A DNA stretch of 64,000 bases, taken from a virus. This document shows positions 1,676-48,170 of the stretch, piece after piece. The position numbers were made by a program, and so were the translations under genes. The notes under the pieces were generated by a model that did not search any database, was not told where the DNA came from, and saw nothing but the letters and a program-made list of their open reading frames with translations. The stretch lies in the IMG/VR virus record IMGVR_UViG_3300043184_000020. One strand, given 5' to 3'. How positions within the stretch are numbered: the first letter of the stretch is position 1; the number at the start of each line of letters is the position of its first letter.

Positions 1676-2109
1676 GCAAGCTCATCAGACTCCTCCGACG
1701 AGCCCACGCCATAGAGGTGGGAGCTTACCACGCCTACGAGGGACACTGGCGCTCCGTCAAACCTGTGAGCGATCCGGTCAGGGGTAAGATCAAGGACATC
1801 CAGATAGACGAGCTTATCCATCGGGAGAATCTGTTTCGGATGCTCTCAGAACTCAACTCCAAGCCCAGTCGCGCCCAGGACCTAATCCTGCTCCTCGTCG
1901 GAAAACTGGTATCTGCATCCTGTCGGATACTCCCACGGCGCTTGGCTGCCTACGGAGCTTACGTCATGGAGATCCTAGGAGACGTATGCTACGCCCAGCT
2001 CGCTCAGGTTGCGAGGGACGAGGGATATCCTGCCATGGCGGTCGAGCTTGACTACATGCAGCGGACCGAACAAGAACACAAGAGCTTCATGAAAGCTTTA
2101 TCAAAATAG
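1672..2109 (+). CDS. ferritin-like di-iron protein (COQ7/rubrerythrin-like fold)
   Basis: TTG start overlapping the upstream stop; two E-x-x-H motifs (DELIH, EQEH) plus EVGAY and MEILGD helices typical of four-helix-bundle di-iron proteins. Confidence 0.45.
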   Translation: MSKLIRLLRRAHAIEVGAYHAYEGHWRSVKPVSDPVRGKIKDIQIDELIHRENLFRMLSELNSKPSRAQDLILLLVGKLVSASCRILPRRLAAYGAYVMEILGDVCYAQLAQVARDEGYPAMAVELDYMQRTEQEHKSFMKALSK

Positions 2110-2569
2110 TCAACTAATATACCTAGAAACCTACACACATGACGACCCTACAGGGGGTAATAACCTGTTGACCAAACCCAAGCAACCTGGTAAGGTCGTA
2201 AGTGAGCCCTGGTCAGTACCGTAGCGTGAGGATAGTGTGGCGTAGCCAACGGTGTCACCTATCACCAGGCATGGTGTGAGAAAGGAAGTTCATCACCCAT
2301 GAAGCTCAAACCCGTCACCTGGGTATCGAAGTGGTGAGGCTGGCTGGCCTTGAAGGACGCAAGTTTGATACCGAGCCGTACTTGCCGTGAGTCCCCTACG
2401 ACAGTGGGGACACCCACCGCTAGATCACTATCACGCTTGCAGAAACATTACGCAGAGCGATCCCGAGCCCTCAGACCACCATAAACACCTAGTCCCGTCA
2501 AACACTTAGCCACGGGGCGTATAGAGCGTATAACGAAACATTACGCATGATGGGGTGGGGTTAATATAG

Positions 2570-2597
2570 TTGACTGGATTAGAGGGGGACTTATAAA
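2570..2597 (+). promoter_or_regulatory. sigma70-like promoter, TTGACT-N16-TATAAA
   Basis: Best -35/-10 match in the ORF-free region; fires into ORF-free sequence. Confidence 0.5.
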
Positions 2598-2805
2598 AAG
2601 GTCCCATGGTGTGGGAGGGAACTAGGTACCCTACATGGGGGGTCGGACACAGTGTCAGGGACTACCCCCCCGGCCTATCTATCGGATACCATTAGAGAAT
2701 AGGCCGCAAGCTTAGGCCTAACGCGGTCTAGGCTTGATAATGTATGTTATCGCGCCGGTTATCGGGTTAGACCATGCGTCTAGTTCAACGATTAATCCCA
2801 TACGT

Positions 2806-2820
2806 TGGCACGGATCTTGC
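2806..2820 (+). promoter_or_regulatory. sigma54-type -24/-12 element, TGGCACGgatcTTGC
   Basis: Exact match to TGGCACG-N4-TTGC. Confidence 0.45.
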
Positions 2821-2835
2821 GTGCGTCGGGATAGT

Positions 2836-2961
2836 CCCTAGGCTAACCCCCTAAACCCTAACCCCATACCCTTTCCAGTGATACCAATACCTTAACCCTT
2901 GCAAGCCTTAGCCCTAACCCTTTAAACCCCTAAACCCTAACGCCTAACCTATCGCTAACCC
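2836..2961 (+). repeat. unidirectional array of about 12 degenerate TAACCC/CCCTAA units
   Basis: ccctaggctaaccccctaaaccctaacccc...ccttaaccc...ccttagccctaaccctttaaacccctaaaccctaacgcctaacctatcgctaaccc. Confidence 0.8.
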
Positions 2962-2972
2962 ATGCTAGGCCT

Positions 2973-2988
2973 TGGCACGCTGTATGCA
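2973..2988 (+). promoter_or_regulatory. sigma54-type -24/-12 element, TGGCACGctgtATGCA
   Basis: GG and GC dinucleotides at the canonical 10-nt spacing. Confidence 0.4.
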
Positions 2989-3125
2989 TGCGTTATAGGT
3001 GTCTAAGCCTTTGACGCATGCCTATAAGTTGTGCAGCTGATATCCTTAGGGTTTTCCCGTTTTCGCCTATTCCCTTGACGCGTCCGTTATGACCCATCCT
3101 TGAAACCCTTAGGGAATATCCCGGC

Positions 3126-3308
3126 ATGACCCTTGCTTTCACTATATGCATGAAAGTCTATCAGATTGAACTTGAAAGCGGACGGGTCGAATTTATAAAG
3201 GCGTCAACTAGTACGCAAGCGGTCAAGGCGTTATGCGAGTCTATGCGCAAGCGTGGCCGTCCCGTATATATCAGGGTCAAGCGTATCAGCATGGTTAAGG
3301 GTTTTTGA
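3126..3308 (+). CDS. hypothetical protein
   Basis: 60-aa ORF, first ORF after the ORF-free region; weak RBS. Confidence 0.3.
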   Translation: MTLAFTICMKVYQIELESGRVEFIKASTSTQAVKALCESMRKRGRPVYIRVKRISMVKGF

Positions 3309-3317
3309 TAATAATAC

Positions 3318-3346
3318 TTGACGGGTTTAATAAGGCTTGATATCCT
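3318..3346 (+). promoter_or_regulatory. early promoter, TTGACG-N17-TATCCT
   Basis: Shared architecture AATACTTGAC...GGC(C)TTGATATCCTG with the promoter at 5598. Confidence 0.5.
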
Positions 3347-3367
3347 GTTAATGAAAGGTAGGACGTT

Positions 3368-3658
3368 ATGCGTAGATTTTTTTTGATGCGAAAGGTAGAC
3401 GTTTCCGGGACTAGCGGCGTGGGGGTCGTGGCCGAAGGGGTCGTATTTGATAACGGCAAGGCCGCCATGACTTGGCTTTCAGACGTCAAGTCGGTTACGT
3501 GTTTCGACCGCTTGACCGAAGTTATCAAGATTCACGGGCACGGCGGCGCGACGGTCATGGTACTGGAAGGCCGCAAGTCGGACGCGAAAGCTTTCGAGTC
3601 ATGCCTTGACGCGGTACGGGCACGAAAGGCCAAGGCTAAGCATGCGGGGGTCATATGA
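3368..3658 (+). CDS. hypothetical early protein
   Basis: GAAAGG RBS, preceded by TTGACG-N17-TATCCT promoter. Confidence 0.6.
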   Translation: MRRFFLMRKVDVSGTSGVGVVAEGVVFDNGKAAMTWLSDVKSVTCFDRLTEVIKIHGHGGATVMVLEGRKSDAKAFESCLDAVRARKAKAKHAGVI

Positions 3659-3885
3659 TCGACCGAAGGCGTCCCGAAGCGTATAGGCTAAGGGTTTATA
3701 TCGATGCGATTAAGGAAGTCGAAAGCATGACCGATGCGGCGTGGCTTGACCGGTACGTGCAAGCGGCCTTGATCAATCGCAATGCGGCATGGTTTCCGCG
3801 TTTCGCGTGGCTTGAATATCTTAAGGCTTGCGCCTTGCGTGAGTCTGAAAGCTTGCTAGCGGCGTCTGAAAGGGACGCGGCCTAG
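3655..3885 (+). CDS. hypothetical early protein
   Basis: ATGA overlap with upstream ORF. Confidence 0.55.
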   Translation: MIDRRRPEAYRLRVYIDAIKEVESMTDAAWLDRYVQAALINRNAAWFPRFAWLEYLKACALRESESLLAASERDAA

Positions 3886-3898
3886 GCAAAAAAACCCC

Positions 3899-3927
3899 TT
3901 GACGGGTCGACCGTCCGGGGATAACCT
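3899..3927 (+). promoter_or_regulatory. early promoter, TTGACG-N17-TAACCT
   Basis: Same spacing class; directly upstream of the conserved RBS block. Confidence 0.45.
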
Positions 3928-3952
3928 GAAAGGGAAAGGAAAGGGAAAACGT

Positions 3953-4414
3953 ATGGGATACACTCACTATTGGAACTTTGCGAAAGCGCCGAAGGGCAAG
4001 GCGTCGGAAACCGAAGCGGCCTATCAAGCGGCGTTAATTGAATGTCAAAGGATCGTCAAGGCCTATTATCGCGAAAACGGCGGCCTTTCAGGCTATACCG
4101 CGCACGCTAAAACCGGTCAATACGGCGGCCTTAACGTCAACGGTAAGGGGGACGATGCGCACGAAACTTTCGCGATGCGGGAACACTTCAGCGAAAACGA
4201 CGGTTTCGGTTTTTGTAAGACGGCGCGGAAACCCTATGACGTCGTCGTGACGGCATGCCTTGCCGTGCTAGCGTACCGCTTGCCGGGACTAGTCACGGTA
4301 TCAAGCGACGGACGGCCTAAAGACTGGACCGAAGGCGTGGCGCTTGCGCGAAAGGTGTTAAGGCGAAAGGTACCTAACCCGATCGGCGGCGAGTCTGAAG
4401 CTAAGGCCGCCTAA
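3953..4414 (+). CDS. hypothetical early protein
   Basis: ORF track starts at 3899, but the conserved GAAAGGGAAAAC-RTATG initiation region places the start at ATG 3953 (MGYTHYW...). Confidence 0.6.
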   Translation: MGYTHYWNFAKAPKGKASETEAAYQAALIECQRIVKAYYRENGGLSGYTAHAKTGQYGGLNVNGKGDDAHETFAMREHFSENDGFGFCKTARKPYDVVVTACLAVLAYRLPGLVTVSSDGRPKDWTEGVALARKVLRRKVPNPIGGESEAKAA

Positions 4415-4484
4415 GGTTTAGACGATCGTCTAAAAGTTATGCGCCGTTTTTGTCACGGCGCTAACGATATCAACGGGTTAAGCG

Positions 4485-4500
4485 TGGCACAGGCCTTGCT
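4485..4500 (+). promoter_or_regulatory. sigma54-type -24/-12 element, TGGCACAggccTTGCT
   Basis: Consensus match about 25 nt upstream of the ATG at 4526. Confidence 0.5.
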
Positions 4501-4525
4501 TGATCATAACTGAAAGGGAAAACAT

Positions 4526-4654
4526 ATGACTAACTTGATGATGACCGAAACCGTCCGAAACCTTGAGACCGTGTTAACCGTGACCTATGTCATCGTGACC
4601 ATATCCATGGGGGTCATGGTCGCGGGTATCGTGGCGAGTTTCAGAAAAGAATAG
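4526..4654 (+). CDS. small membrane protein (42 aa)
   Basis: Below the ORF-track cutoff; same 26-bp RBS and start block as the next gene; MTNLMMTETVRNLETVLTVTYVIVTISMGVMVAGIVASFRKE has one TM helix. Confidence 0.5.
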   Translation: MTNLMMTETVRNLETVLTVTYVIVTISMGVMVAGIVASFRKE

Positions 4655-4683
4655 TTGACTAAACGCATAGGCCTTGAGATCAT
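4655..4683 (+). promoter_or_regulatory. early promoter, TTGACT-N17-GATCAT
   Basis: TAGTTGACT...GGCCTTGA aligned with the other early promoters. Confidence 0.4.
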
Positions 4684-4727
4684 AAAACTAAGCCGGGGAT
4701 GATCCCGGCGCATGAAAGGGAAAACAT

Positions 4728-5543
4728 ATGACTAACTTAATCCTGAACACTAACCCGATCGAAGCGGTCAACCCCGCGTCTCACCTTAACCCCGAAACGT
4801 ACGGTTTCACGTCGACGCGTGAGATTCTAGACGCTTTCGCGGCGCATGGATGGACGCCGGTTTCGAAGCAAGTTGCACGCGTCCGAAACTCGGACCGCCA
4901 AGGGTTTCAAAAACACCTTATCCGACTTGAAAACCCCGCGTTTCAAGGTATCGAAGGCCTTTCGAGCGGTAACGCTTCCCGGCCTCAACTTGTAGTCCTA
5001 AACTCACATGACGGGTCGTCTAGCCTACAGATTTTTTGGGGGTTAGTCCGCATCGCGTGCCTTAACGGTATCATTGCGGGGTCGTCGCTTTCGAGTTTCC
5101 GCTTGATTCACTCTAAGCGAGTCACGGACCGCTTGCCCGAAGCGATAGAACACCTAGTCGGAAACTTCCCGGCCTTTATCAGTCAAGTTCAAAGCTTGCA
5201 AGGCCTCAAGTTTTCCGACGCGGCCTTGACCGAACTAGTCCGGACCGTGTACGATGCACGCTTGCAAGGCGTCGGGAAGGTGTTAGCGGTCGACTATTCC
5301 TTGCCTAACCTTGCACGCGCCGAAGATAACGCGACGGACGCCTTCACGGTTTTTAACCGTGTTCAGGAAGTTCTAATCCGTGGCGGTATCCGGTACCGCG
5401 CCGAAAGGAATAGGCTTGACGATAACGGGCAAGTTATCGAGACGCGCATCGTCGACGCTAAGACTCGAAAACTTTCGAGCGTCACGCAACAAGTCAATCT
5501 AAACCGTGTCGTGTATGACACGGCCTTGAAGCTTGCGGCCTAA
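4728..5543 (+). CDS. DUF932-family protein
   Basis: LNSHDGSSSLQIFWGLVRIACLNGIIAG resembles the NSHDGS...R.vC.NG core of DUF932 (PF06067) phage/plasmid proteins. Confidence 0.55.
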   Translation: MTNLILNTNPIEAVNPASHLNPETYGFTSTREILDAFAAHGWTPVSKQVARVRNSDRQGFQKHLIRLENPAFQGIEGLSSGNASRPQLVVLNSHDGSSSLQIFWGLVRIACLNGIIAGSSLSSFRLIHSKRVTDRLPEAIEHLVGNFPAFISQVQSLQGLKFSDAALTELVRTVYDARLQGVGKVLAVDYSLPNLARAEDNATDAFTVFNRVQEVLIRGGIRYRAERNRLDDNGQVIETRIVDAKTRKLSSVTQQVNLNRVVYDTALKLAA

Positions 5544-5556
5544 CTGAAAACCGGCG

Positions 5557-5592
5557 GCGTCGGGGTCAAAAAACCCCGGCGCTTGCCGTTTT
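5557..5592 (+). terminator. terminator-like hairpin
   Basis: GCGTCGGGG-tcaaaaaa-CCCCGGCGC stem (one G-T wobble), then ttgccgTTTT. Confidence 0.4.
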
Positions 5593-5597
5593 AATAC

Positions 5598-5626
5598 TTG
5601 ACTAGTTTTATAGGCCTTGATATCCT
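5598..5626 (+). promoter_or_regulatory. early promoter, TTGACT-N17-TATCCT
   Basis: Follows a terminator-like hairpin and precedes the RBS of ORF 5647. Confidence 0.5.
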
Positions 5627-5646
5627 GAAAGCGAAAGGGAAAACAT

Positions 5647-6363
5647 ATGCAAAAAATTATAGGTTTCGAAAACGCGAAAACTTCTAAGGGTACCGCGCAC
5701 GGGTACCTAACCGGTATCGTCTACCTTGCGCCGTATAACCTAAGCGGCGTCAACTTGTGCCCGAAGGCGTCTAAGGGATGCGCGGCGGCGTGCCTTTACA
5801 CGGCGGGTCGTGGCGCTTTCAAGTCGATTCAAGCGGCGCGTATGGCAAAAACTCAATGGTTTTTGAATGACCGCGCCGGTTTCGTCGATCAACTTAAGCG
5901 TGAGATTAAGGCCGCGCAAAAACGCGCCGCGAAACTAGGCCTTAAGCTTGCGATAAGACTCAACGGGACGTCGGATATCGTATGGGAAAGGATAACGGAC
6001 GTTATCCAAAGTTTTCCGGACGTGCAATTCTATGACTATACAAAAATCGCAAAGCGTTTCCTTTGGGACCGTCCCGCTAACTATGACTTGACGTTTTCCC
6101 TTTCAGAGGATAACGAAACGGACGCCGCTTTCGTGCTAGCGCGTGGCGGTCGGGTCGCGGCGGTTTTCCGTGACCGAAACTTTCCCGCGTCGTTCTTAGG
6201 CGTGCCCGTGGTATCAGGCGATGACCATGACTTGCGTTTCCTAGACGCGTCCGGGGTCGTTGTCGGACTATACGCGAAAGGCAAGGCGCGAAAGGATGCG
6301 TCGGGTTTCGTACGGGATACCGAAACCGCGAAAGGATGCGACGGCCTCAAGGCCGCCGCTTAA
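5647..6363 (+). CDS. conserved phage protein, possibly GP88 (PF17338)-like
   Basis: 238 aa; Cys-rich N-terminus (LCPKASKGCAAACLYTAGRG), NGTSD and YDYTK motifs recalled from that family; family assignment is from memory only. Confidence 0.4.
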   Translation: MQKIIGFENAKTSKGTAHGYLTGIVYLAPYNLSGVNLCPKASKGCAAACLYTAGRGAFKSIQAARMAKTQWFLNDRAGFVDQLKREIKAAQKRAAKLGLKLAIRLNGTSDIVWERITDVIQSFPDVQFYDYTKIAKRFLWDRPANYDLTFSLSEDNETDAAFVLARGGRVAAVFRDRNFPASFLGVPVVSGDDHDLRFLDASGVVVGLYAKGKARKDASGFVRDTETAKGCDGLKAAA

Positions 6364-6375
6364 GGGGGTCAAGTC

Positions 6376-6573
6376 ATGACCGCGTCAAAGCTTGATCAAC
6401 TTAACCAACTAAGGCAAGCAATACATAACTTGCGCATGCGGTTTCCGATCGGTATCAAGTCGATCACCGACGCGCACGACGCTAAGCTTGACCGCTTGCA
6501 AAAACTGCTAGAACTTCAGACGAAAGGGGTTAACCATGAAAGCAAAAAACAAAAACGAAACGCTAACACTTGA
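6376..6573 (+). CDS. hypothetical protein
   Basis: AAGGGGG RBS; 38-nt overlap with the next small ORF. Confidence 0.4.
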   Translation: MTASKLDQLNQLRQAIHNLRMRFPIGIKSITDAHDAKLDRLQKLLELQTKGVNHESKKQKRNANT

Positions 6574-6703
6574 AACGCTGAAACGCTTAGTTTCAGACTT
6601 TCCCGGCCTATCGGACGGGGAAACCGAAGTCAACGGCGCGGACCTAGTCGACGCCTTGACCGAAGCGGTCGAAAACTTGAAACGGAAAGGGGTTAAGTTA
6701 TGA
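6536..6703 (+). CDS. hypothetical protein (55 aa)
   Basis: Below the track cutoff; GAAAGGGGTTA RBS repeated three times in this stretch; ATGA coupling to the 6700 ORF. Confidence 0.45.
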   Translation: MKAKNKNETLTLETLKRLVSDFPGLSDGETEVNGADLVDALTEAVENLKRKGVKL

Positions 6704-6933
6704 CGGTCAATCGGGTTTATATCGTGCGACGCGGTCCCGTGCATCGTCGCCTTAGGGTTAAGATTGACGGGAAAACGTACACTTGCGGTCAATCGGTACG
6801 ATGCGCAAGCGGCGCGGCGTTTTATATCCACGCGATACATGCAAGCGGACTAGTCGAATTCAGGACGTCGCATGGGTTAGGGTTTTCGATCGAAACGAAA
6901 GGGGTTAGTCATGGTCAAAGTTCTATCGGTTAA
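6700..6933 (+). CDS. hypothetical protein
   Basis: GAAAGGGGTTAAGTT-ATG initiation region. Confidence 0.4.
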   Translation: MTVNRVYIVRRGPVHRRLRVKIDGKTYTCGQSVRCASGAAFYIHAIHASGLVEFRTSHGLGFSIETKGVSHGQSSIG

Positions 6934-7045
6934 GCGACGCGACGCGTCGACGGTTATGGTCAAGGTTTCGGTACCCTTCGAAGCGTGAAAACACGCGGCG
7001 AAAACCGGAAACCTAGGTTTTCTCTATGGGGTCGATATCTCAAAC

Positions 7046-7279
7046 TTGATCTATAGGACGCACGGGGTCGCGGCGTATAACCCGACCGTGGACGATACCG
7101 CGAAACCGTCAAGCGGGGTCAAGGTCATTGACCTATACTATCAGGACGCCGCATGGGTCGAAAGGCCGCTAGCGGACGTTATCCGGGTTGACTTCAAAGC
7201 ACGGCGGCGCATAACCGAAGGCGAGACCGCGCAAGCGCTCGAAACCTTGCCGAAGGGTACCGGGAAAGGGTTAGCATGA
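7046..7279 (+). CDS. hypothetical protein
   Basis: TTG start, weak RBS; coupled to the downstream ORF. Confidence 0.3.
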   Translation: MIYRTHGVAAYNPTVDDTAKPSSGVKVIDLYYQDAAWVERPLADVIRVDFKARRRITEGETAQALETLPKGTGKGLA

Positions 7280-7515
7280 GACCGCGCAAGCTTCGAAAGC
7301 TTAAGGCCTTGCATGCCGCTTTCATGCAAGCGATTATCGACCGCGCCGATACCGAAGCGGCGGACTATTGGAAGCGTGAAAACTTCAGGTTTCAGCATGG
7401 GGTTAACCCCCCGACGTCCGAAGCGGTTAAGCGGTCGGCGGCAAGGCTAGACGCCACGCGGGACGCCTTGCGCCGCGCATGGGGTCATGACCGAAGGCCT
7501 CAAGGGAAAGGATGA
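7276..7515 (+). CDS. hypothetical protein
   Basis: GGGAAAGGG RBS, ATGA overlap. Confidence 0.5.
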   Translation: MRPRKLRKLKALHAAFMQAIIDRADTEAADYWKRENFRFQHGVNPPTSEAVKRSAARLDATRDALRRAWGHDRRPQGKG

Positions 7516-7518
7516 CTC

Positions 7519-7899
7519 ATGGGATACAAGAACTATGCCAGTCAAGAATCGTGCCAAGACGGGGACCGTGTCACGGAAGACGCACGTCAAGCCGGACATG
7601 GGTCCGATCCGACACGTGTCACCGATGACACAGGTCAACTTGGACGCGTGTCCGACGAGACACAGGACGCCTTTGCAATGCTCGTGCCAGCCCGAGATTT
7701 TAAGCTTGGCACGCGATATGCAGGGACTCCCGTCGGAGAGTTTCAGCGCGACGCGGACGGTCGCTATTGGTGGCGACGGGTAGACGGCTCTATCATGGAA
7801 GTTTTCCCCCATCCTTCGGCATTGTTCATGCCTTTGAAAGCGGGGGGATCGGTAGCGGACCCGTATCATGGAGAACTAGACACGCGGGGAGACGCCTAG
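7519..7899 (+). CDS. hypothetical protein
   Basis: GGAAAGGA RBS; preferred over the overlapping frame 7487..7783. Confidence 0.5.
   Translation: MGYKNYASQESCQDGDRVTEDARQAGHGSDPTRVTDDTGQLGRVSDETQDAFAMLVPARDFKLGTRYAGTPVGEFQRDADGRYWWRRVDGSIMEVFPHPSALFMPLKAGGSVADPYHGELDTRGDA
7707..7722 (+). promoter_or_regulatory. sigma54-type -24/-12 element, TGGCACGcgatATGCA (intragenic)
   Basis: Same motif inside ORF 7519..7899, upstream of the tandem 27-bp motifs. Confidence 0.3.
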
Positions 7900-8005
7900 C
7901 GTAGAGAATTCAGCACGCGGGGAGAATCACCCTATAGAGAACTCTGTAGGTGGGTAAGATCGGACACCCCACCCCCTATAGAGAACTTAACAAGCGGGGA
8001 GAATC
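7869..8005 (+). promoter_or_regulatory. four tandem copies of the 27-bp motif (T/G)(A/G)GAGAA(C/T)-N9-GGG(G/T)A(G/A)(A/G)(A/C)(T/G)C
   Basis: Copies at 7869-7895, 7902-7928, 7935-7961 and 7979-8005, each with a 9-nt spacer. Confidence 0.5.
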
Positions 8006-8015
8006 GAGGTTTCAC

Positions 8016-8222
8016 ATGTTTAAGAGTTTCCCATACCCTAACGCCACGCCTTCAAAGGTTCGCATGGTATACGACGCCGCACGACTCCTAGGCTATCCCG
8101 CGCCTTCCTACCTGAAAGCTCAGGAAGCGGCGCACAAGTTCACAGCTGAGGAACTCGAAAGGCTAGTCCGCATCGGTTCACGTCGAAAACTTGCGAGAAC
8201 ACGCTTGACCGTGGTCAAGTAG
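8016..8222 (+). CDS. hypothetical protein (68 aa)
   Basis: Track ORF 7950..8222 trimmed to ATG 8016, which lies 10 nt after the third tandem copy of the 27-bp motif. Confidence 0.5.
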   Translation: MFKSFPYPNATPSKVRMVYDAARLLGYPAPSYLKAQEAAHKFTAEELERLVRIGSRRKLARTRLTVVK

Positions 8223-8276
8223 TTTGATAAGGTGAGTCTATCCCCGAGACGTTCCCCCTAACGTCTCTCCCCCCGA

Positions 8277-8326
8277 CCCCTGAGAGGTTCCCCCCCCCCC
8301 CTTTCGCCTCTCGGGGGTTTTTTTTG
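8277..8326 (+). terminator. rho-independent terminator with C12 tract in the loop
   Basis: CCCCTGAGAGG ... CCTCTCGGGGG 11-bp stem (one G-T wobble) followed by T8; ends the early block. Confidence 0.65.
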
Positions 8327-8417
8327 TCCTTAGACTTACTGTCAAACATCTTTACAGCTGCTGAAAAGTTCGACGACATACCGACGACACGGCCTAAGGA
8401 TTTCAAATACTTACAGC

Positions 8418-8433
8418 TGGCACGGTCGATGCA
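8418..8433 (+). promoter_or_regulatory. sigma54-type -24/-12 element, TGGCACGgtcgATGCA
   Basis: In the intergenic region after a terminator, flanked by 16-bp direct repeats, upstream of ORF 8488 and rIIA. Confidence 0.45.
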
Positions 8434-8487
8434 TTAACTATCTGTAACGGCGACGACATACCGACGCCGCAAACGAAAGGACCGAAC

Positions 8488-8658
8488 ATGGGAAACAAGA
8501 TCAAAGGTTACGAGTGGGAAGGCATGAGTCTTGCAATGTACGCCGAGGGTAACACCTTCCGCGTGGTGTCGATCTGCGACGGTTTTCGTAGCGACAAGAT
8601 TTTTATTGACTACTCGGAAGCCTCAAGTTACTTTGATGGTGTACTCACGGGGAACTAA
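8488..8658 (+). CDS. hypothetical protein (56 aa)
   Basis: Below the track cutoff; GAAAGGA RBS; downstream of a sigma54-like promoter. Confidence 0.45.
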   Translation: MGNKIKGYEWEGMSLAMYAEGNTFRVVSICDGFRSDKIFIDYSEASSYFDGVLTGN

Positions 8659-8679
8659 TCCTAACGAAAGGGAAAGAAT

Positions 8680-10710
8680 ATGAGACTAGCACAGCACGCA
8701 AACAAGCTCGAAACTAACGTCCAGGTTGAAAGTCAAAACTTCGGAATCGGTGACGCATCGGTCGTCATCGAGATCTTGAGAAACCGACTCTATCAGCATA
8801 AGATTCGCACGCTCGTTCAAGAGTATATCTGTAACGCGAGGGATGCCCATAGAGAAGTTGACTCGCGGGAAAAATTGATCGTGACGGTACCTAACCGCTT
8901 GAATCCTATCTTTAAGGTTCGAGACTTCGGTCCTGGTATCTCTCCCGACCGCATGCGCGACGTGTTCATCATGTACGGCGCTAGCACTAAGCGCGGGACT
9001 AACAAGCAGACCGGCGGTTTCGGCATCGGTGCAAAGTCAGCATGGAGCTACACCGACTCTTTCACGATCGTGTCGATCACCGAAGGCAAGCGTCGCACCT
9101 ACGTGGCGCATACCGGAGTGAACAACAACGGACGCCTTGACCTCATCGAGACCGTCGACACGGACGAGCCTAACGGCACCGAGATTCAGGTTTCCGTCAA
9201 GCCTAGCGACCTCGAAGAGTTTAAGAACTCAGTGCTCCGAGCTATCCACTTCTGGCCTCAAAAACCTACGCTCAAGGGTTTGGTGGACGCTCCTACTGAC
9301 TCAGGCTTACAGCAAGGTCTGAGCCTTGAACTCGGAAAGCACTTCGAACTCGTGACCGGACTCCCATGGTACGTATCAGGTTCGAACTCATACAGCCGTG
9401 ACCTAATCGCGGTCATCGATGGAGTACCTTACGCTATCAATAGAGAACTTCGCGAGCGGGTAGCTTCGCTTGATGAACTCGCTACCTTGTGCCGTCAGCA
9501 CATGATCTTTCACGTAGGTAACGGACTCATCGAAGTTTCGGCGTCCCGTGAATCTATCGCGGACTCAAAGCAGACGATCGAAGCGCTTGACAAGCTTGCC
9601 TCTGCAGCTATCAAGGAAGTGAAAGCCTACGTCAAGGCCGAGTTTGACAAGGTGAGATCGGTTCACGATTTCATGGGTACGTATTCCCGACTAGAAAAGT
9701 ACGTTACGCTTGACGCGAGCCTCGCTGAGTTTCAAGGCTACAAGATCGAACGCGGAGCCATGAGTAACGCTACGCTTGAGCCTCACTACTTGAAGGAGAC
9801 CGTATCGCCTCAGTATCGCAGTAACTCGGTGGCCGACGGCGTGCGTCGTAACGACAAGACCTCGAAACCCTTCGCGCTTGCAGACTACGGAAACATCTAC
9901 TACGTCGACGTGGTGGAGTCTCGGGTCATCGAGAATCGTCGCCTACGCACTATCCTGGCAACGGCTCGAAACGGTTTCGTACTGATCAAGAAGCACGACA
10001 AGAGCGACCCTAAGCTTTGGAATCAGCTGATCACGGACCTCAACGCTATCCCGCTTTCAAGTGTTCAGATGACGAAAGCCGCTCCGGTTCAGCGAGTCGC
10101 TAAGGCCGTAACCGAGATCACGGTTCACATCCCACGGTCTAACAATCGCGAGACGGCGACCATCAACATAACTTCCAGCATGCACGACTACGTGTACGTG
10201 GAAACGCAAGCCGGTGAGTTTTTGGGATACCGACGCGAAGACCTCACAGATCTTGCCCGGTATCTCGATCAGCACCACGGCGTCAAGCTCGTAGGCTTGG
10301 CACCTTTGACGATCAAGAAGGTCCAAGGTCTGAGCAACTTCCAGTCTCTCGAAAGTTTCTGGAAGGCGTACAAGCCTGAGACTAAGGACCTACGCATCGC
10401 GAAGCGTACACTTTCGAAGAGCTTCGAGATCATGTCGGCTCTTAGTAAAGGTCCGAAGACGCGCTGTAAGTTCTTCTCAAAGATGCAGCTGGAGTATGCA
10501 GACATCGCAAGCTTTGCGAACGAGAGTACTCCTAAGATCATGATCAAGGTTCTTGAGAAGCTCGACGAGGTTAAAGACTTCGTAGAGAACGACTCCAAGC
10601 TCCAAGGTCAGATCGAAACTAAGTACAAGCTGCTCAAGATGTTTGACGCTTATAACCGATTCCGTGGAGATTCTGCAGAGTGGGTTGAATATATTAACGC
10701 TAAGTCCTAA
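8680..10710 (+). CDS. rIIA: rIIA-like protein (GHKL ATPase fold)
   Basis: N-box ICNARDA, G1 box VRDFGPGIS and G2 box GGFGIGAKS; 676 aa; directly upstream of an rIIB homolog. Confidence 0.75.
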   Translation: MRLAQHANKLETNVQVESQNFGIGDASVVIEILRNRLYQHKIRTLVQEYICNARDAHREVDSREKLIVTVPNRLNPIFKVRDFGPGISPDRMRDVFIMYGASTKRGTNKQTGGFGIGAKSAWSYTDSFTIVSITEGKRRTYVAHTGVNNNGRLDLIETVDTDEPNGTEIQVSVKPSDLEEFKNSVLRAIHFWPQKPTLKGLVDAPTDSGLQQGLSLELGKHFELVTGLPWYVSGSNSYSRDLIAVIDGVPYAINRELRERVASLDELATLCRQHMIFHVGNGLIEVSASRESIADSKQTIEALDKLASAAIKEVKAYVKAEFDKVRSVHDFMGTYSRLEKYVTLDASLAEFQGYKIERGAMSNATLEPHYLKETVSPQYRSNSVADGVRRNDKTSKPFALADYGNIYYVDVVESRVIENRRLRTILATARNGFVLIKKHDKSDPKLWNQLITDLNAIPLSSVQMTKAAPVQRVAKAVTEITVHIPRSNNRETATINITSSMHDYVYVETQAGEFLGYRREDLTDLARYLDQHHGVKLVGLAPLTIKKVQGLSNFQSLESFWKAYKPETKDLRIAKRTLSKSFEIMSALSKGPKTRCKFFSKMQLEYADIASFANESTPKIMIKVLEKLDEVKDFVENDSKLQGQIETKYKLLKMFDAYNRFRGDSAEWVEYINAKS

Positions 10711-10738: not shown

Positions 10739-11551
10739 ATGAACTACATCATCCTAAACGACTCGATGGTACTGAACTACGGCGGTAAGACGATCTCGAT
10801 CGCTAACACTGACGAACGATACACGAAGGTCATCGACCTGATTCGAGACAACAAGCTGGAAGAGATCCCAGCGGTCATCGAAGCGCAAGCCTTAGCCTTC
10901 AGCGGCGAAGGTGTGGAGCTGCGAGACGGAGTCATCGTGGTTGACGGCGTGGCTATCCCGCACGAGCTTTCCGATCGAGTGTTGAAGTTCCGTGAACAGA
11001 AGCTTCCCTTCGAACCACTTTTGAACTTCTGGCGTAACCTGAGGAAGAATCCTTCCTTTAACTCTCGTCAGATGCTCTACAAGTTTCTGGAGCATAACGG
11101 TCATCCGATCACTCCGGACGGCTGCTTCATCGCGTACCGTGGCATCCGAGACGACCTGAAGGACATGCACACCGGTACCTTTAACAACGCGCCTGGACAA
11201 GTGTGTGAGATTGCTCGCGATCAGGTTGATGACAATCCGAATAACACTTGCTCGCACGGTCTTCACGTGGCATGCTTCGACTACGCCAAGGGTTTTGGTC
11301 AGAAGCTCGTAGAGGTTAAAGTTAACCCTTCGGACGTGGTCGCGGTACCCACCGACTACAACGGCACCAAGATGCGGGTTTGCAAGTTCGAAGTTCTAAA
11401 CCTGATCGATAAGCCAAGAGCCGAAGAGCTTGCATCCGACGTGGAAGGTTCGGACTACATGACCGAGGACGAGGTTGACGAGCAGGAAGCTAACGACTGG
11501 GACAGCGAAGATGATTACCACAGCTGTGACTGTGAATTCTGCACGGAATAA
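10739..11551 (+). CDS. rIIB: rIIB-like protein
   Basis: NNTCSHGLHVA...VKVNPSDVVAVPTDYNGTKMRVCKFEV closely parallels the T4 rIIB C-terminus (TCSRGLHV...VKVHPRDVVSIPIDYNDAKMRTCQYEV). Confidence 0.85.
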   Translation: MNYIILNDSMVLNYGGKTISIANTDERYTKVIDLIRDNKLEEIPAVIEAQALAFSGEGVELRDGVIVVDGVAIPHELSDRVLKFREQKLPFEPLLNFWRNLRKNPSFNSRQMLYKFLEHNGHPITPDGCFIAYRGIRDDLKDMHTGTFNNAPGQVCEIARDQVDDNPNNTCSHGLHVACFDYAKGFGQKLVEVKVNPSDVVAVPTDYNGTKMRVCKFEVLNLIDKPRAEELASDVEGSDYMTEDEVDEQEANDWDSEDDYHSCDCEFCTE

Positions 11552-11566
11552 GAAAGGAAGAATGTT

Positions 11567-11902
11567 ATGAACGCTTTAAAAGTAAGAAGTTGCAAGCACT
11601 GCGGAGAGTCTAAACACATGCGAAAGCTTGTGGACGCTGAGTATGGAATCTTCAGTGAGCGATACTGGACCTGTTTCCAGTGTCATCCTGAGCTTGACTC
11701 GTCGGCTATCAACAACAGCGGTCAGAGTGGTGGACTCAAGGCGATGCGAAGCGAAGACGACGGTATGGGCGACGTATACTGCGACAGCTTTGATAAAGAT
11801 CTTGACGAGGAAGCTCAAGAAAAGTATGCTGATGAGGATACGGAGCTTGAACTCGAAGACGATACCGTAGAGAACTTTCAAGGTGGGGAGAATCATGGGT
11901 AG
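11567..11902 (+). CDS. zinc-ribbon protein with acidic tail
   Basis: CKHCG...CFQCH four-Cys ribbon; D/E-rich C-terminus. Confidence 0.5.
   Translation: MNALKVRSCKHCGESKHMRKLVDAEYGIFSERYWTCFQCHPELDSSAINNSGQSGGLKAMRSEDDGMGDVYCDSFDKDLDEEAQEKYADEDTELELEDDTVENFQGGENHG
11868..11894 (+). promoter_or_regulatory. 27-bp motif copy, TAGAGAAC-N9-GGGGAGAATC
   Basis: Ends immediately before the HNH endonuclease ATG. Confidence 0.5.
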
Positions 11903-12272
11903 AAGCGGAGACCTGAAGGCGGTGAACGACGACTTGATTCGTCAGCTGCTAGAAGATCCGCTCTACGAGGTGAGACCCGACGGTACAATCCTGACGCTGA
12001 AAACGGTTACTGGAAAGGTAAGTGCAAACAGTGTGTGGAGAAAAGCTGGCAGGTACGAGTCTAACGGTTACGTCCAGATATCGTATGCAGGTAAGCGGTT
12101 ACTAGCACACAGAATCGTATATCAGAAGTTTAAAGGAGGACTCAAGTGCGATTTAGTAGTTGACCACGGTAACGGAATAAGAGATGATAATAGGCCTGAG
12201 AACCTAAGTTTGGTTACAGCAAAGTCAAATCACTTCTACGTGAAGAGGAGAAAAAGCAATGAAAGTTCGTAG
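11895..12272 (+). CDS. HNH homing endonuclease
   Basis: LAHRIVY...VVDHGNGIRDDNRPENL (HNH_3-type motif); start moved to ATG 11895 directly after the 27-bp motif. Confidence 0.8.
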   Translation: MGRSGDLKAVNDDLIRQLLEDPLYEVRPDGTILTLKTVTGKVSANSVWRKAGRYESNGYVQISYAGKRLLAHRIVYQKFKGGLKCDLVVDHGNGIRDDNRPENLSLVTAKSNHFYVKRRKSNESS

Positions 12273-13155
12273 TTTGTATCTTATGGTGATGATCGCGGCC
12301 CTCGTGGGTTGTGGTCCTGATCGAGAAGTCGTTCAGGTTTACAAGGGAGATCCTGGTCAGAACGGGACGTCGTGTTCCGTAGGACCCGCCCTCGACGAAG
12401 AAACCTTCTCGGTGATTGGAGCAAAGATCTCGTGTACCGACGGTTCATCGTCGCTAGTACTGAACGGCGCTCAAGGCCCACAAGGCGTTCAAGGCCCTCA
12501 AGGTCAGCAGGGTATCCAAGGCCCGGTCGGTCAGACCGGCGCAGCTGGAGCGAGCTGTCAAGCGTATCGATCCATCCTCTTCTCAGGAGTATGGCTTGCA
12601 TGTCCTAACCAGTTTCCGGTCTTGATCAAAGACGGCGAAGATGGAGAAGACGGCGAAGATTGTAAGGTGAAACAGTTGTCTAACGGCGCACGCATCACAT
12701 GCGGAAGTTCAGTGGCCTACGTTTACAACGGACAAAACGGTCAGAACGGGACTTCATGCTCTATCAGCAACGCGACCGGAGGAGCGCAGATCACTTGCGG
12801 AAGCACGAGTCAGATGATCTACGACGGTCAGAACGGAGCTGTCGGACCAGTTGGCCCCCCCGGACCTCAAGGACAGCCTGGACAGAACGCACTTGCTAAC
12901 GCTATCGGAATCAAAGGCTACATCTATCCATGCGGTCAAGAGTTTGCAAACGATGAGATCTTCTTGCGACTCACGGACGGAAAGATTTTGGCTCTCTACG
13001 ATGGTGGACCTCACGAGGATCGATTGGCACTTCTCGCACCGGGTAACTACATCACGACGGACCGTAACAAGAACCAGGCTTGTCAGCTCACGGTTGACTC
13101 TAACCTTAACGTGACGTCTAACCCACCGACTACTGGTCTCGGGTTGAACAACTAA
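12259..13155 (+). CDS. lipoprotein with collagen-like G-X-Y repeats
   Basis: Lipobox ALVGC; GAQGPQGVQGPQGQQGIQGPVGQTGAAGAS and GQNGAVGPVGPPGPQGQPGQN tracts; internal (I/A)(S/T)CG repeats. Confidence 0.75.
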   Translation: MKVRSLYLMVMIAALVGCGPDREVVQVYKGDPGQNGTSCSVGPALDEETFSVIGAKISCTDGSSSLVLNGAQGPQGVQGPQGQQGIQGPVGQTGAAGASCQAYRSILFSGVWLACPNQFPVLIKDGEDGEDGEDCKVKQLSNGARITCGSSVAYVYNGQNGQNGTSCSISNATGGAQITCGSTSQMIYDGQNGAVGPVGPPGPQGQPGQNALANAIGIKGYIYPCGQEFANDEIFLRLTDGKILALYDGGPHEDRLALLAPGNYITTDRNKNQACQLTVDSNLNVTSNPPTTGLGLNN

Positions 13156-42486: not shown

Positions 42487-42724
42487 GTTTCAGTGTGAGT
42501 GCCGCTACTGCGGGTTCAGATGGGTTAAGCAGGTTACCGAGTACGCCGCCAGGACCGGAGACCTTGATGGTATCCGCTGCACGAACGGTAGCTGTAACGA
42601 TCGTAACGTGAAGGTTACGGAACTTAGTAAGTCTGGAGGAGACGCGTTTGGTTATCGCTTCAGTCCAGACTTTCCTAAGGAAGATTTCAGCGGTCCTGGT
42701 TACTGGGGTCAGTATTCGGACTAG
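42479..42724 (+). CDS. zinc-ribbon protein
   Basis: CECRYCG...CTNGSC motif. Confidence 0.45.
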   Translation: MLKFQCECRYCGFRWVKQVTEYAARTGDLDGIRCTNGSCNDRNVKVTELSKSGGDAFGYRFSPDFPKEDFSGPGYWGQYSD

Positions 42725-45372: not shown

Positions 45373-45398
45373 CTTTCTTCTCTTATTCTTTAGGCTTC

Positions 45399-45407
45399 AT
45401 TATACCA
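45399..45407 (-). promoter_or_regulatory. extended -10, TGgTATAAT
   Basis: Upstream of fibre paralog A. Confidence 0.5.
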
Positions 45408-45413
45408 GGTTCT

Positions 45414-47699: not shown

Positions 47700-47742
47700 A
47701 CACTGATCCCTTCATTCTCGAGTTTAAGCCCGTCGGTCACCA

Positions 47743-48123
47743 TTACAGTCCGAGAGCTTCGTCGCTGACTTCAGAGTCAAGGCTAAGATACAACTTGCGC
47801 TCAACCGAGTCCATGTTTGCCCAGGTCTTCTCAAGCATTCCGATCTTCTTGAGTCGGATAGCTTCTGCACGAGCTTCAGACTGAGCCTGAACCTGTGCCC
47901 TAGACCTGTAGCTGACAACCATCTCATGTTGATCGTCGTCAAGCTCGTCCCACTTTGCGCGGATTGCGTCTTCTTGGGCCTGAGAGTCTTCGGTGAGATG
48001 CACCACACACTTGGAGTGCGCAGAAACACCAGTACAGTCGCTGTTAGCTCTGCACCACTGCTCGAACGCGCTCAAGTTCACGTTGTGCGCTTTCCATTCC
48101 AGTTCTACGTTACGTTTGATCAT
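47743..48123 (-). CDS. hypothetical protein between fibre paralogs
   Basis: 126-aa ORF with AAGGAG RBS. Confidence 0.45.
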   Translation of the reverse strand: MIKRNVELEWKAHNVNLSAFEQWCRANSDCTGVSAHSKCVVHLTEDSQAQEDAIRAKWDELDDDQHEMVVSYRSRAQVQAQSEARAEAIRLKKIGMLEKTWANMDSVERKLYLSLDSEVSDEALGL

Positions 48124-48141
48124 TGATCGTCTCCTTCTTTG

Positions 48142-48170
48142 ATCTTACCCTTATGGGTAACTTTTTACAA
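48142..48170 (-). promoter_or_regulatory. promoter, TTGTAA-N17-TAAGAT
   Basis: In the 41-bp gap upstream of ORF 47743..48123. Confidence 0.4.

Follow-up and report, generated by a model that had tools for sequence, protein, structure and literature searches.

Alone among bacterial sigma factors, sigma54 cannot start transcription without an ATP-driven AAA+ enhancer-binding activator, which carries a GAFTGA loop. The classical bacterial layout at such promoters is an enhancer, a site for integration host factor (IHF) and the sigma54 promoter itself. To our knowledge, phages have almost never been reported to use this sigma factor. The only phage precedent that we found is Pseudomonas phage YuA, which is reported to use host sigma54 at some promoters, with rpoN dependence tested experimentally (Ceyssens et al. 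2008, as cited in PMC10914365). Here we analyze a group of sigma54-type -24/-12 elements in a 64,000-nucleotide stretch of the IMG/VR virus record IMGVR_UViG_3300043184_000020, hereafter the window. An initial annotation had pointed out five matches to the pattern TGGCAC-N5-WTGC on the plus strand, beginning at 2806, 2973, 4485, 7707 and 8418, and had read them as sigma54-type promoters. That reading was favored by every sequence-level and comparative test that we ran, and the sites are probably genuine sigma54 (RpoN)-type -24/-12 elements read by the host sigma54-RNA polymerase.

The exact pattern occurs seven times in the window, compared with 0.12 +/- 0.36 times in 100 dinucleotide-preserving shuffles of the same 64 kb, none of which reached seven. 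The five matches lie exactly where the initial annotation had placed them. Its statement that all matches lie on the plus strand and only in the early region holds for the five that it named. Two minus-strand matches had been missed, at 7675-7689 and 52920-52934, and the second of these, inside a structural gene and below the threshold of the matrix described next, contradicts the confinement of the exact pattern to the early region.

We also scanned both strands of the whole window with a 17-position weight matrix built from 42 intergenic, sense-oriented sigma54 sites of Escherichia coli identified by chromatin immunoprecipitation sequencing (PMC4591121, Table 1). Because the matrix was trained on E. 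coli alone, with no phage site in the training set, circularity is avoided. At a threshold of 14.7 bits, the lower quartile of the E. coli sites (median 16.3 bits), eight matches were found, six on the plus and two on the minus strand, all within 2805-8535, while first-order Markov simulations of the window gave an expectation of 0.17 per 64 kb. The window sites score like median E. coli sigma54 promoters (Table 1). No matrix match was present in the 10 kb upstream of the window, so that sequences of sigma54 quality are confined to 5.7 kb of the ~74 kb scanned. As a positive control, the -24/-12 fragments of YuA were scored with the same matrix and reached at most 5.9 bits, which indicates that the matrix is conservative and fails to capture the YuA case.

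For comparison with related phages, an rIIA protein profile was used to collect 80 metagenome loci, 36 IMG/VR loci and one genome-collection locus, covering +/-10 kb around rIIA; the gene calls used for statistics are crude. L-numbers denote individual loci, and the relaxed form of the pattern is TGGCA[CT]-N5-NTGC[AT]. The nearest relative, L002, has an rIIA that is 55% identical and is syntenic with the window (RlaP, a region free of open reading frames (ORFs), small ORFs, DUF932, Gp88, rIIA, rIIB). It carries exact gene-strand matches at 4270, 4321 and 4510, in the ORF-free region, and at 9753. Four of the five window sites have orthologues in L002: 2806, 2973, 4485 and 8418 correspond to 4270, 4510, 6532 and 9753, respectively. 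The pairing of 2973 with 4510 is probable; TAGGC precedes both sites, and the alignment there is poor. In the window-L002 alignments, the motif is an island of identity, with the surrounding non-coding DNA largely diverged.

A gene-strand site upstream of rIIA was found in relatives whose rIIA is at least 35% identical (35-55%; n = 16). Its distance to the downstream ATG is 41-66 nt in 11 loci and rises to 102-262 nt in those with an intervening small ORF or a longer leader. Across these 16 sites, T1, G2, G3, A5, Y6, G14, C15 and W16 are invariant and C4 and T13 are kept in 15, while positions 7-12 vary. In a spacing control on 403 kb of clade loci, the N5 gap gave 90 plus-strand and 24 minus-strand sites, compared with 0-4 per strand for gaps of 2-4 and 6-9. 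The sites of the clade loci are biased towards the plus strand (78 plus, 15 minus) and are 4.5-fold denser in intergenic than in ORF-covered DNA (0.85/kb and 0.19/kb), despite an ORF caller crude enough to over-call genes. With the E. coli matrix, several matches were obtained in each of about 20 rIIA loci, with a maximum of 12 on a single strand over 10.7 kb; about 40 loci at a greater distance, most of them low in GC, gave no match. Phylogenetic profiling of the genes within +/-10 kb of rIIA showed that DUF932 and two unknown families co-occur with the sites, a result confounded by relatedness.

Some sites are paired, either convergent and overlapping or tightly divergent, mostly in ORF-poor regions. 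The convergent overlapping pairs are palindromic, of the form TGGCAC-N5-TTGCA-N2-3-TGCAA-N5-GTGCCA (L078 3622-3796, equal to L079 1989-2163, and L003 5062-5096); further pairs lie at L016 5943-5967 and at 7675-7722 of the window. Other short repeated words also occur near sites, GTCTCA-N3-5-TGGGA in L087 3300-4600 and TCAAATTGAGAC/TCAAATTGATACA in L019 and L083, and these may represent a second class of regulatory site.

For the analysis of flanking sequence, all 82 plus-strand clade sites were taken without selection. The IHF consensus WATCAANNNNTTR, with at most one mismatch, is found just upstream in 30 of the 82 sites, against 0.7 expected, and in 24 of the 82 the IHF-like core begins exactly 17 nt before the T of TGGCAC. 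Twenty-nine composite sites share additional upstream conservation over ~35 bp, approximately TTTAAG-N3-5-TTGACA-NN-TGACTAAAAGTTCTACA, with AAAAGTT at -54 from the motif, and this class shows a weak ATA..TA preference just 3' of the -12 element. The other 53 clade sites have no flanking conservation at all. The upstream block is kept across phages with GC contents of 0.39-0.55, and its persistence over so wide a range argues for a conserved binder, of either host or phage origin. In relatives, the composite module precedes rIIA, DUF932, genes for small membrane peptides and assorted small ORFs, with two to three modules per locus; in L085 and L013 a composite site lies directly 5' of the DUF932 gene.

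In the window, the composite sites are 4485 and 8418, whose sequences reproduce the enhancer-IHF-sigma54 layout with a predicted IHF site. The IHF-like core was not seen at 2806, 2973 or 7707. A sigma70 reading of the composite module was rejected. There is no -35/-10 pair at 16-19 bp, the TTGACA-like and TAAAAT-like words being 22-23 bp apart; the ATAGATA word cannot give both A-11 and T-7, and a consensus scan puts the sigma70-like promoters at 3318, 4655 and 5598. A MotA-type reading was also rejected, with no MotA box at -30 accompanied by a TAnnnT -10.

The 8418 site precedes a 56-aa ORF (8488-8658; start codon 70 nt past the motif start), rIIA, rIIB and plus-strand genes up to ~13650. 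Its orthologue at L002 9753, TGGCACGACCGATGCA, likewise lies upstream of the 56-aa ORF and rIIA. As noted in the initial annotation, the site comes after the early terminator, a hairpin and T-run, and is bracketed by 16-bp direct repeats, which proved to be perfect copies of CGACGACATACCGACG. The upstream block of this module, CTGAAAAGTTCGAC, spans 8361-8374, and the block TTTCAA....TTTAC at the IHF-like core is kept in L002, with diverged flanks. The first of the two repeat copies falls within the candidate enhancer and the second, 80 bp further on, within the leader; a related CGACATACCG is present in the rIIA-promoter leader of the distant relative L083 (~6633-6645). The CGACGACATACCGACG repeat may be an operator or a leader element.

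The 4485 site is the one that had been placed about 25 nt upstream of a start codon; the motif ends 26 nt before ATG 4526. Measured from the motif start, this ATG is 41 nt away; the predicted leader is 15 nt long and has the ribosome-binding site GAAAGGG. The genes that follow encode a 42-aa hydrophobic peptide (4526-4654) and a DUF932 protein (4728-5543). The orthologue at L002 6532, a TGGCAT variant, has in common with the window site an upstream TTTTTGTCAC/TTTTTCGTCAC block and the IHF core. The AAAAGTT word at -53/-54 from the motif recurs in 9-12 other clade sites. The block at 4428-4443 is a candidate enhancer, to which a protein would bind. The block overlaps a 16-bp palindrome, TTAGACGATCGTCTAA, at 4418-4433. 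As a candidate enhancer in its own right, the strict TTAGAC...GTCTAA palindrome was rejected; it is present at 4418-4433 and does not generalize across the clade.

The 2806 and 2973 sites both fall in a region that had been described as ORF-free, and indeed no gene is called in 2110-3125. The next ORF is 320 nt away from 2806 and 153 nt away from 2973, whose predicted start lies ~125 nt before ATG 3126. The flanks of 2806 and of its orthologue are conserved as GTTAGACCAT ... TTGGCACG.A.CTTGC..GCGT.GGGATAGT. Between the two sites, the plus strand carries a C-rich, G-poor, telomere-like (CCCTAA/CCCTAAA)n tract at 2844-2949. A transcript from 2806 would cover this tract, and the resulting RNA would resemble a Rho-utilization site.

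The remaining sequences of sigma54 quality, 7707, 7690(-), 7541(-) and 8519, are of uncertain use. The 7675-7689(-) match, which comes closest to the textbook consensus, pairs divergently with the 7707 site at a distance of 17 bp; its counterpart in L002 is a weaker, intergenic CGGCACGCGTTTTGC at 9067-9081(-). The 7541(-) site lies inside the start of ORF 7519-7899 and carries TTGTA, as do pspA and pspG of E. coli. The 8519 site has a counterpart, TGGCATGAGCATTGCA, at L002 9829; both copies are in conserved coding sequence, so that their conservation is uninformative. The five sites named at the outset are not equal promoter candidates: the architecture is complete at 4485 and 8418, 2806 and 2973 show conservation with no ORF close by, and 7707 is intragenic and not conserved.

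Table 1. Sigma54-type sites, parts of the composite module and neighboring features. Positions are those of the window; parts of the module are given relative to the predicted transcription start.
Feature	Position	Strand	Remarks
Sigma54-type site TGGCACGGATCTTGCG	2806..2821	+	Exact match; matrix match at 2805, 17.4 bits; ORF-free region; predicted start ~2832
Sigma54-type site TGGCACGCTGTATGCA	2973..2988	+	Exact match; matrix match at 2972, 16.6 bits; ORF-free region; predicted start ~2999
Candidate enhancer block of 4485, GTCTAAAAGTTATGCG	4428..4443	+	AAAAGTT at -53/-54 from motif
IHF-consensus core TATCAACGGGTTA	4468..4480	+	0 mismatches to WATCAANNNNTTR; begins 17 nt 5' of TGGCAC
Composite sigma54-type promoter (predicted) TGGCACAGGCCTTGCT	4485..4500	+	Exact match; matrix match at 4484, 15.0 bits; predicted start ~4511
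Sigma54-type site CTGGCATAGTTCTTGTA	7525..7541	-	Matrix match at 7541(-), 16.0 bits; matrix only; antisense to early genes
Sigma54-type site CTGGCACGAGCATTGCA	7674..7690	-	Matrix match at 7690(-), 19.8 bits, best in window; antisense; exact pattern TGGCACGAGCATTGC at 7675-7689
Sigma54-type site TGGCACGCGATATGCA	7707..7722	+	Exact match; matrix match at 7706, 17.2 bits; inside ORF 7519-7899; predicted start ~7733
Candidate enhancer block of 8418, CTGAAAAGTTCGACGACATACCGACG	8361..8386	+	AAAAGTT at -54 from motif; holds direct-repeat copy 1 (8371-8386)
IHF-consensus core TTTCAAATACTTA	8401..8413	+	1 mismatch; begins 17 nt 5' of TGGCAC
Composite sigma54-type promoter (predicted) of rII operon TGGCACGGTCGATGCA	8418..8433	+	Exact match; matrix match at 8417, 16.0 bits; predicted start ~8444
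Direct repeat copy 2 CGACGACATACCGACG	8451..8466	+	In predicted 5' leader of rII operon
Weaker sigma54-type site AAGGCATGAGTCTTGCA	8519..8535	+	15.1 bits; inside 56-aa ORF, 160 nt before rIIA
Pattern match TGGCACCGCGCTTGC	52920-52934	-	Inside structural gene; below matrix threshold
Conserved upstream block of composite module	~-100 to -70		
IHF-like core of composite module	-43 to -31		
Sigma54 element of composite module	-26 to -11		
Leader with Shine-Dalgarno	15-45 nt		
Sigma70-type early promoter TTGACG-N17-TATCCT with TG	3318..3346	+	Consensus scan, repeat family D4/D8
Sister sigma70-type promoters	4655-4683, 5598-5626	+	Family form TTGACK-N17-TATCCT with extended TG
Intrinsic terminator-like hairpin and T-run	8301..8325	+	Ends early unit; stem and T-run kept in L002
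rIIA	8680-10710	+	
rIIB	10739-11551	+	

With respect to the activator that a sigma54 promoter needs, the initial annotation had seen none in the window, and our searches bear this out for the canonical signature, also in the IMG/VR contigs of the clade. Neither a GAFTGA-type loop nor a GESGTGK Walker A motif was present in six frames of the 64-kb window, and no GAFTGA-type loop was present in six frames of any fetched clade locus. Among the 2.9 million contigs of IMG/VR, 36 carry HExGAFTGA and seven carry the RpoN box ARRTVAKYR, with no clade contig in either group; activator motifs that have diverged would escape these motif scans, in which the clade included four genomes of 168-177 kb. No Sigma54_activat, RpoN or IHF/HU domain came up when most of the window ORFs were scanned against Pfam and PHROG. 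The absence of a canonical activator points to a host protein or to a phage protein of unrecognized type.

An AAA protein encoded 9 kb upstream of the window (L158 979-1917, 312 aa) was considered as activator and rejected, being Cdc48/VCP-like with no GAFTGA or sigma54-contacting loop. It has an acidic tail, is encoded in the plus-strand gene block before the ORF-free region and is the only AAA-type protein near the sites. A putative sigma54-like protein of Pectobacterium phage Q19 was also set aside, as it is unrelated and its HHpred evidence is weak (E-value 0.67).

Taken together as a mechanism, 4485 and 8418 would be complete enhancer-dependent promoters, in which an activator sits at the upstream block, IHF bends the DNA, and the -24/-12 element is followed by a short leader. 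We infer the binding of sigma54 holoenzyme and IHF, the start sites, the timing and the identity of the activator. The activator acting on the closed sigma54 complex would be either supplied by the host or a phage protein unlike canonical enhancer-binding proteins. Standing beside strong sigma70 early promoters, the sigma54 promoters would most likely be of a delayed-early or middle class, silent until the ATP-dependent activator acts on them. The 2806 and 2973 sites would probably give long-leader or non-coding transcripts running into the early operon, or else be non-productive binding sites. For the antisense sites 7690 and 7541, we speculate that they interfere with early transcription once the activator appears.

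Reading of the motif by a phage-encoded factor, either a dimeric regulator or a specificity factor that redirects RNA polymerase, with a convergent likeness to sigma54 elements, is in our judgment improbable. Such a factor would fit the long palindromes formed by paired sites (L078/L079 and L003, together with the divergent 7689(-)/7707(+) pair), the conserved ATAGATA downstream of the motif in the composite class, the limitation of the motif to one phage clade and the negative activator search. It leaves unexplained, however, why a matrix trained only on E. coli recovers the sites at the scores of median promoters, why the information is concentrated at the positions that sigma54 reads, with the usual C/T alternative at -21, and why enrichment is limited to a spacing of one helical turn. 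The phased IHF-consensus core and the upstream block also match the bacterial enhancer-dependent layout, and a sigma70-type reading fails on spacing and on the -10 bases. Chance, composition or a by-product of coding is rejected for the whole set by the shuffles, the matrix and the spacing control, and for the set as a whole we hold it to be very improbable indeed: seven and eight sites were seen where 0.12 and 0.17 are expected, only N5 is enriched, orthologous sites are conserved in intergenic DNA with diverged flanks, and the sites cluster in 5.7 kb of 74 kb with none in the 10 kb upstream. It can still hold for single weak or intragenic sites, such as the sub-threshold 52920-52934(-) inside a gene, 8519 in conserved coding sequence, or the matches that collagen-like repeats yield in some relatives.

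It is also possible, and in our estimation unlikely, that sigma54 binds and that several sites (the ORF-free cluster and the antisense, intragenic and palindromic-doublet sites) are non-productive, serving as decoys that titrate the scarce sigma54 of the host while the phage genome replicates, or as roadblocks or occluders of sigma70 transcription. In E. coli, most sites bound by sigma54 are intragenic and silent, and bound sigma54 can repress a promoter that it overlaps (PMC4591121). The 2806 and 2973 sites, with no IHF core, upstream block or nearby ORF, the 53 clade sites that have no IHF core and no flanking conservation, and the overlapping convergent sites, which cannot both fire, would suit this account. 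However, the distance from the composite sites to ribosome-binding sites and start codons is short and constant, the strong gene-strand bias would be unexpected for pure decoys, and the sequence just 3' of 2806 is conserved, as it would be in a transcribed leader. We prefer the reading of the sites as elements recognized by the host sigma54-RNA polymerase, and several points weigh against it. Conservation of ATAGATA just 3' of the -12 element, as in the composite class, is not typical of classic sigma54 promoters, and the candidate enhancer lies nearer to the promoter than in many bacterial examples. Two of the five sites, 2806 and 2973, lack both an IHF-like core and a nearby ORF, and 7707 is intragenic, has no L002 counterpart and shows no IHF-like core. 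Members of a convergent overlapping pair cannot both act as productive promoters and would equally fit a dimeric DNA-binding protein, and part of the clade count is noise, as some coding-region matches are collagen-like Gly-X-Y repeats (L007 1515, 1764). No activator was found for the clade, the presence of rpoN and IHF in the host is an assumption, and all of the support is sequence-level and comparative.

If the promoters are real, infection would require rpoN and IHF of the host, together with an activator that is either hijacked from the host or a phage protein of a new kind, and the phage would possess a transcription channel insulated from sigma70 control. The combination of interest is the presence, clade-wide, of near-consensus sigma54 promoters with an IHF site and an upstream block before conserved early or middle operons, and of no recognizable activator gene. 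It provides a sequence signature for part of the transcription program of phages that have no cultured member, and this signature may narrow the host range to lineages that carry rpoN. A broader proposal, which we put forward tentatively and regard as rather doubtful, is that a widespread clade of uncultured myovirus-like phages (168-177 kb) runs delayed-early and middle genes, including rIIA-rIIB and DUF932, through host sigma54 by means of a phage-specific enhancer and a phage-encoded activator of non-GAFTGA type. If true, such an activator would be a new way to unlock the sigma54 closed complex, and the promoters would give the phage a private transcription channel that outlasts sigma70 shut-off.

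The window belongs to a novel myovirus-like phage that encodes rIIA/rIIB, GroEL and the family-A DNA polymerase PolA, and no cultured relative was found. Pfam and PHROG scans identified further products, namely a primase-helicase, a UvsX-like recombinase, the large terminase subunit, a portal and baseplate and tail proteins. Megablast found no near-identical DNA to positions 2000-9000 among 50,697 deposited phage records. The best matches among cultured-phage proteins were at 31% identity for PolA (Flavobacterium phage immuto) and 26% for rIIA (T4-like Klebsiella phages). Searching IMG/VR for exact DNA or with a single protein gave no match, and relatives surfaced only through protein-database and profile-based scans. 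An identical rIIA is recorded on two metagenome contigs, the longer of 116 kb; the contig read here is a 110-kb Logan contig. The related IMG/VR genomes of the clade include four near-complete ones of 168-177 kb. The sole match in the genome-collection scan was a phage-sized 155-kb contig binned into an Omnitrophota metagenome-assembled genome, which is uninformative on the host.

Between 3100 and 8250, small plus-strand ORFs are served by strong sigma70-type promoters, and the terminator at ~8300 closes the unit. This arrangement fits the designation of the segment as an early region, and the sigma70-type promoters at 3318, 4655 and 5598 indicate, as context, that the region has ordinary promoters too. 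The 96-aa early ORF 3368-3658 has a precomputed Pfam match to PF26761 (Acb5) and a match to phrog_7499, and was unmatched in the Pfam copy that we scanned. Another early gene, at 3953-4414, encodes a 153-aa protein. Positions 6911-7279 correspond to a single 116-aa ORF in L002 (8691-9041); the window has a 25-codon ORF at 6911-6987 followed by a TTG-started 77-aa ORF at 7046-7279, for which a frameshift, a pseudogene and a wrongly called start are possible explanations. No tRNA gene was found in the 64-kb window, and a tRNA-Ile (anticodon TAT) is present in the ORF-free region of L002 (3781-3856).

Two conserved non-coding blocks were also observed. A ~90-nt block at 2603-2692 is nearly identical in L002 (4064-4152), though the proteins are only ~55% identical, and is preceded at 2566-2600 by a sigma70-like ATAGTTGACT-N18-TAAAAA. 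The RNA of this block folds no better than shuffles (z +1.6 and -0.2), which makes a DNA-level site or an unstructured small RNA more likely. A triple direct repeat, TAGAGAA-N9-GCGGGGAGAATC, occupies 7862-8010, past the 7707 site and immediately before the 68-aa ORF 8016-8222; it is kept in L002 (9238-9352) and may be an array of protein-binding sites. Structured RNA was rejected for both blocks, with z-scores of +1.6 to -0.6 and no Rfam match. Further along the window, an HNH_3 homing-endonuclease-like gene (11883-12272) lies between the rIIB-side genes and a collagen-repeat, tail-fiber-like gene (12259-13155). On the minus strand, large proteins of 883, 761 and 1325 aa are encoded one after another in 42721-52142; all three have a carbohydrate esterase 2 N-terminal-like domain and are probably paralogous fiber or host-recognition proteins.

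Compared with IHF-assisted sigma54 promoters of bacteria (E. coli pspA and glnHp2, Klebsiella nifH, Pseudomonas Pu), the composite promoters have TGGCAC-N5-TTGCW in common with them and are alike in placing an IHF-consensus core between an upstream block and the promoter and in having a short leader. The phage sites also score equally with E. coli sigma54 promoters on the E. coli matrix. They differ in belonging to a lytic-type phage genome with no cognate activator gene nearby, and in a compact module whose IHF core abuts the -24 element. The upstream block corresponds to none of the activator sites known to us; it resembles the sites of NifA (TGT-N10-ACA) and GlrR (TGTC-N10-GACA), being one base shorter.

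In T4, rIIA and rIIB are early/middle genes. The middle (MotA/AsiA) and late (gp55/gp33/gp45) promoters of T4 likewise form classes that need an extra activator on host RNA polymerase, while the window phage differs in the sigma family involved and in the grammar of its promoters; no homologue of MotA, AsiA or gp55 came up when the window was scanned against Pfam and PHROG. The sites at 7707, 7690(-), 7541(-) and 8519 are like the intragenic and antisense sigma54 sites of E. coli, with their sense-strand bias (Bonocora et al. 2015, PMC4591121), which may be silent or drive long-leader transcripts. The phage sites differ from these in being packed into a few hundred bases of the early region, with one divergent pair, and they have only a weak counterpart in the nearest relative.

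The closest phage comparison is with YuA/M6, a virulent phage that uses host sigma54 at some promoters and for which no activator gene is reported. YuA is a 58.7-kb siphovirus unrelated to the window phage, so that the resemblance is one of concept only. The -24/-12 fragments annotated in YuA, three in number, come from its head, tail and lysis region, whereas the present sites belong to the early/rII region of a phage that is myovirus-like and much larger, and score 15-19.8 bits on the matrix that gives the YuA fragments their low values. The present sites are, in addition, conserved across a clade and accompanied by a predicted IHF core and an upstream block. Our literature search found no description of this clade, nor of sigma54/IHF promoters in large phages. 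The finding extends a known kind of element, the host-sigma54-dependent phage promoter.

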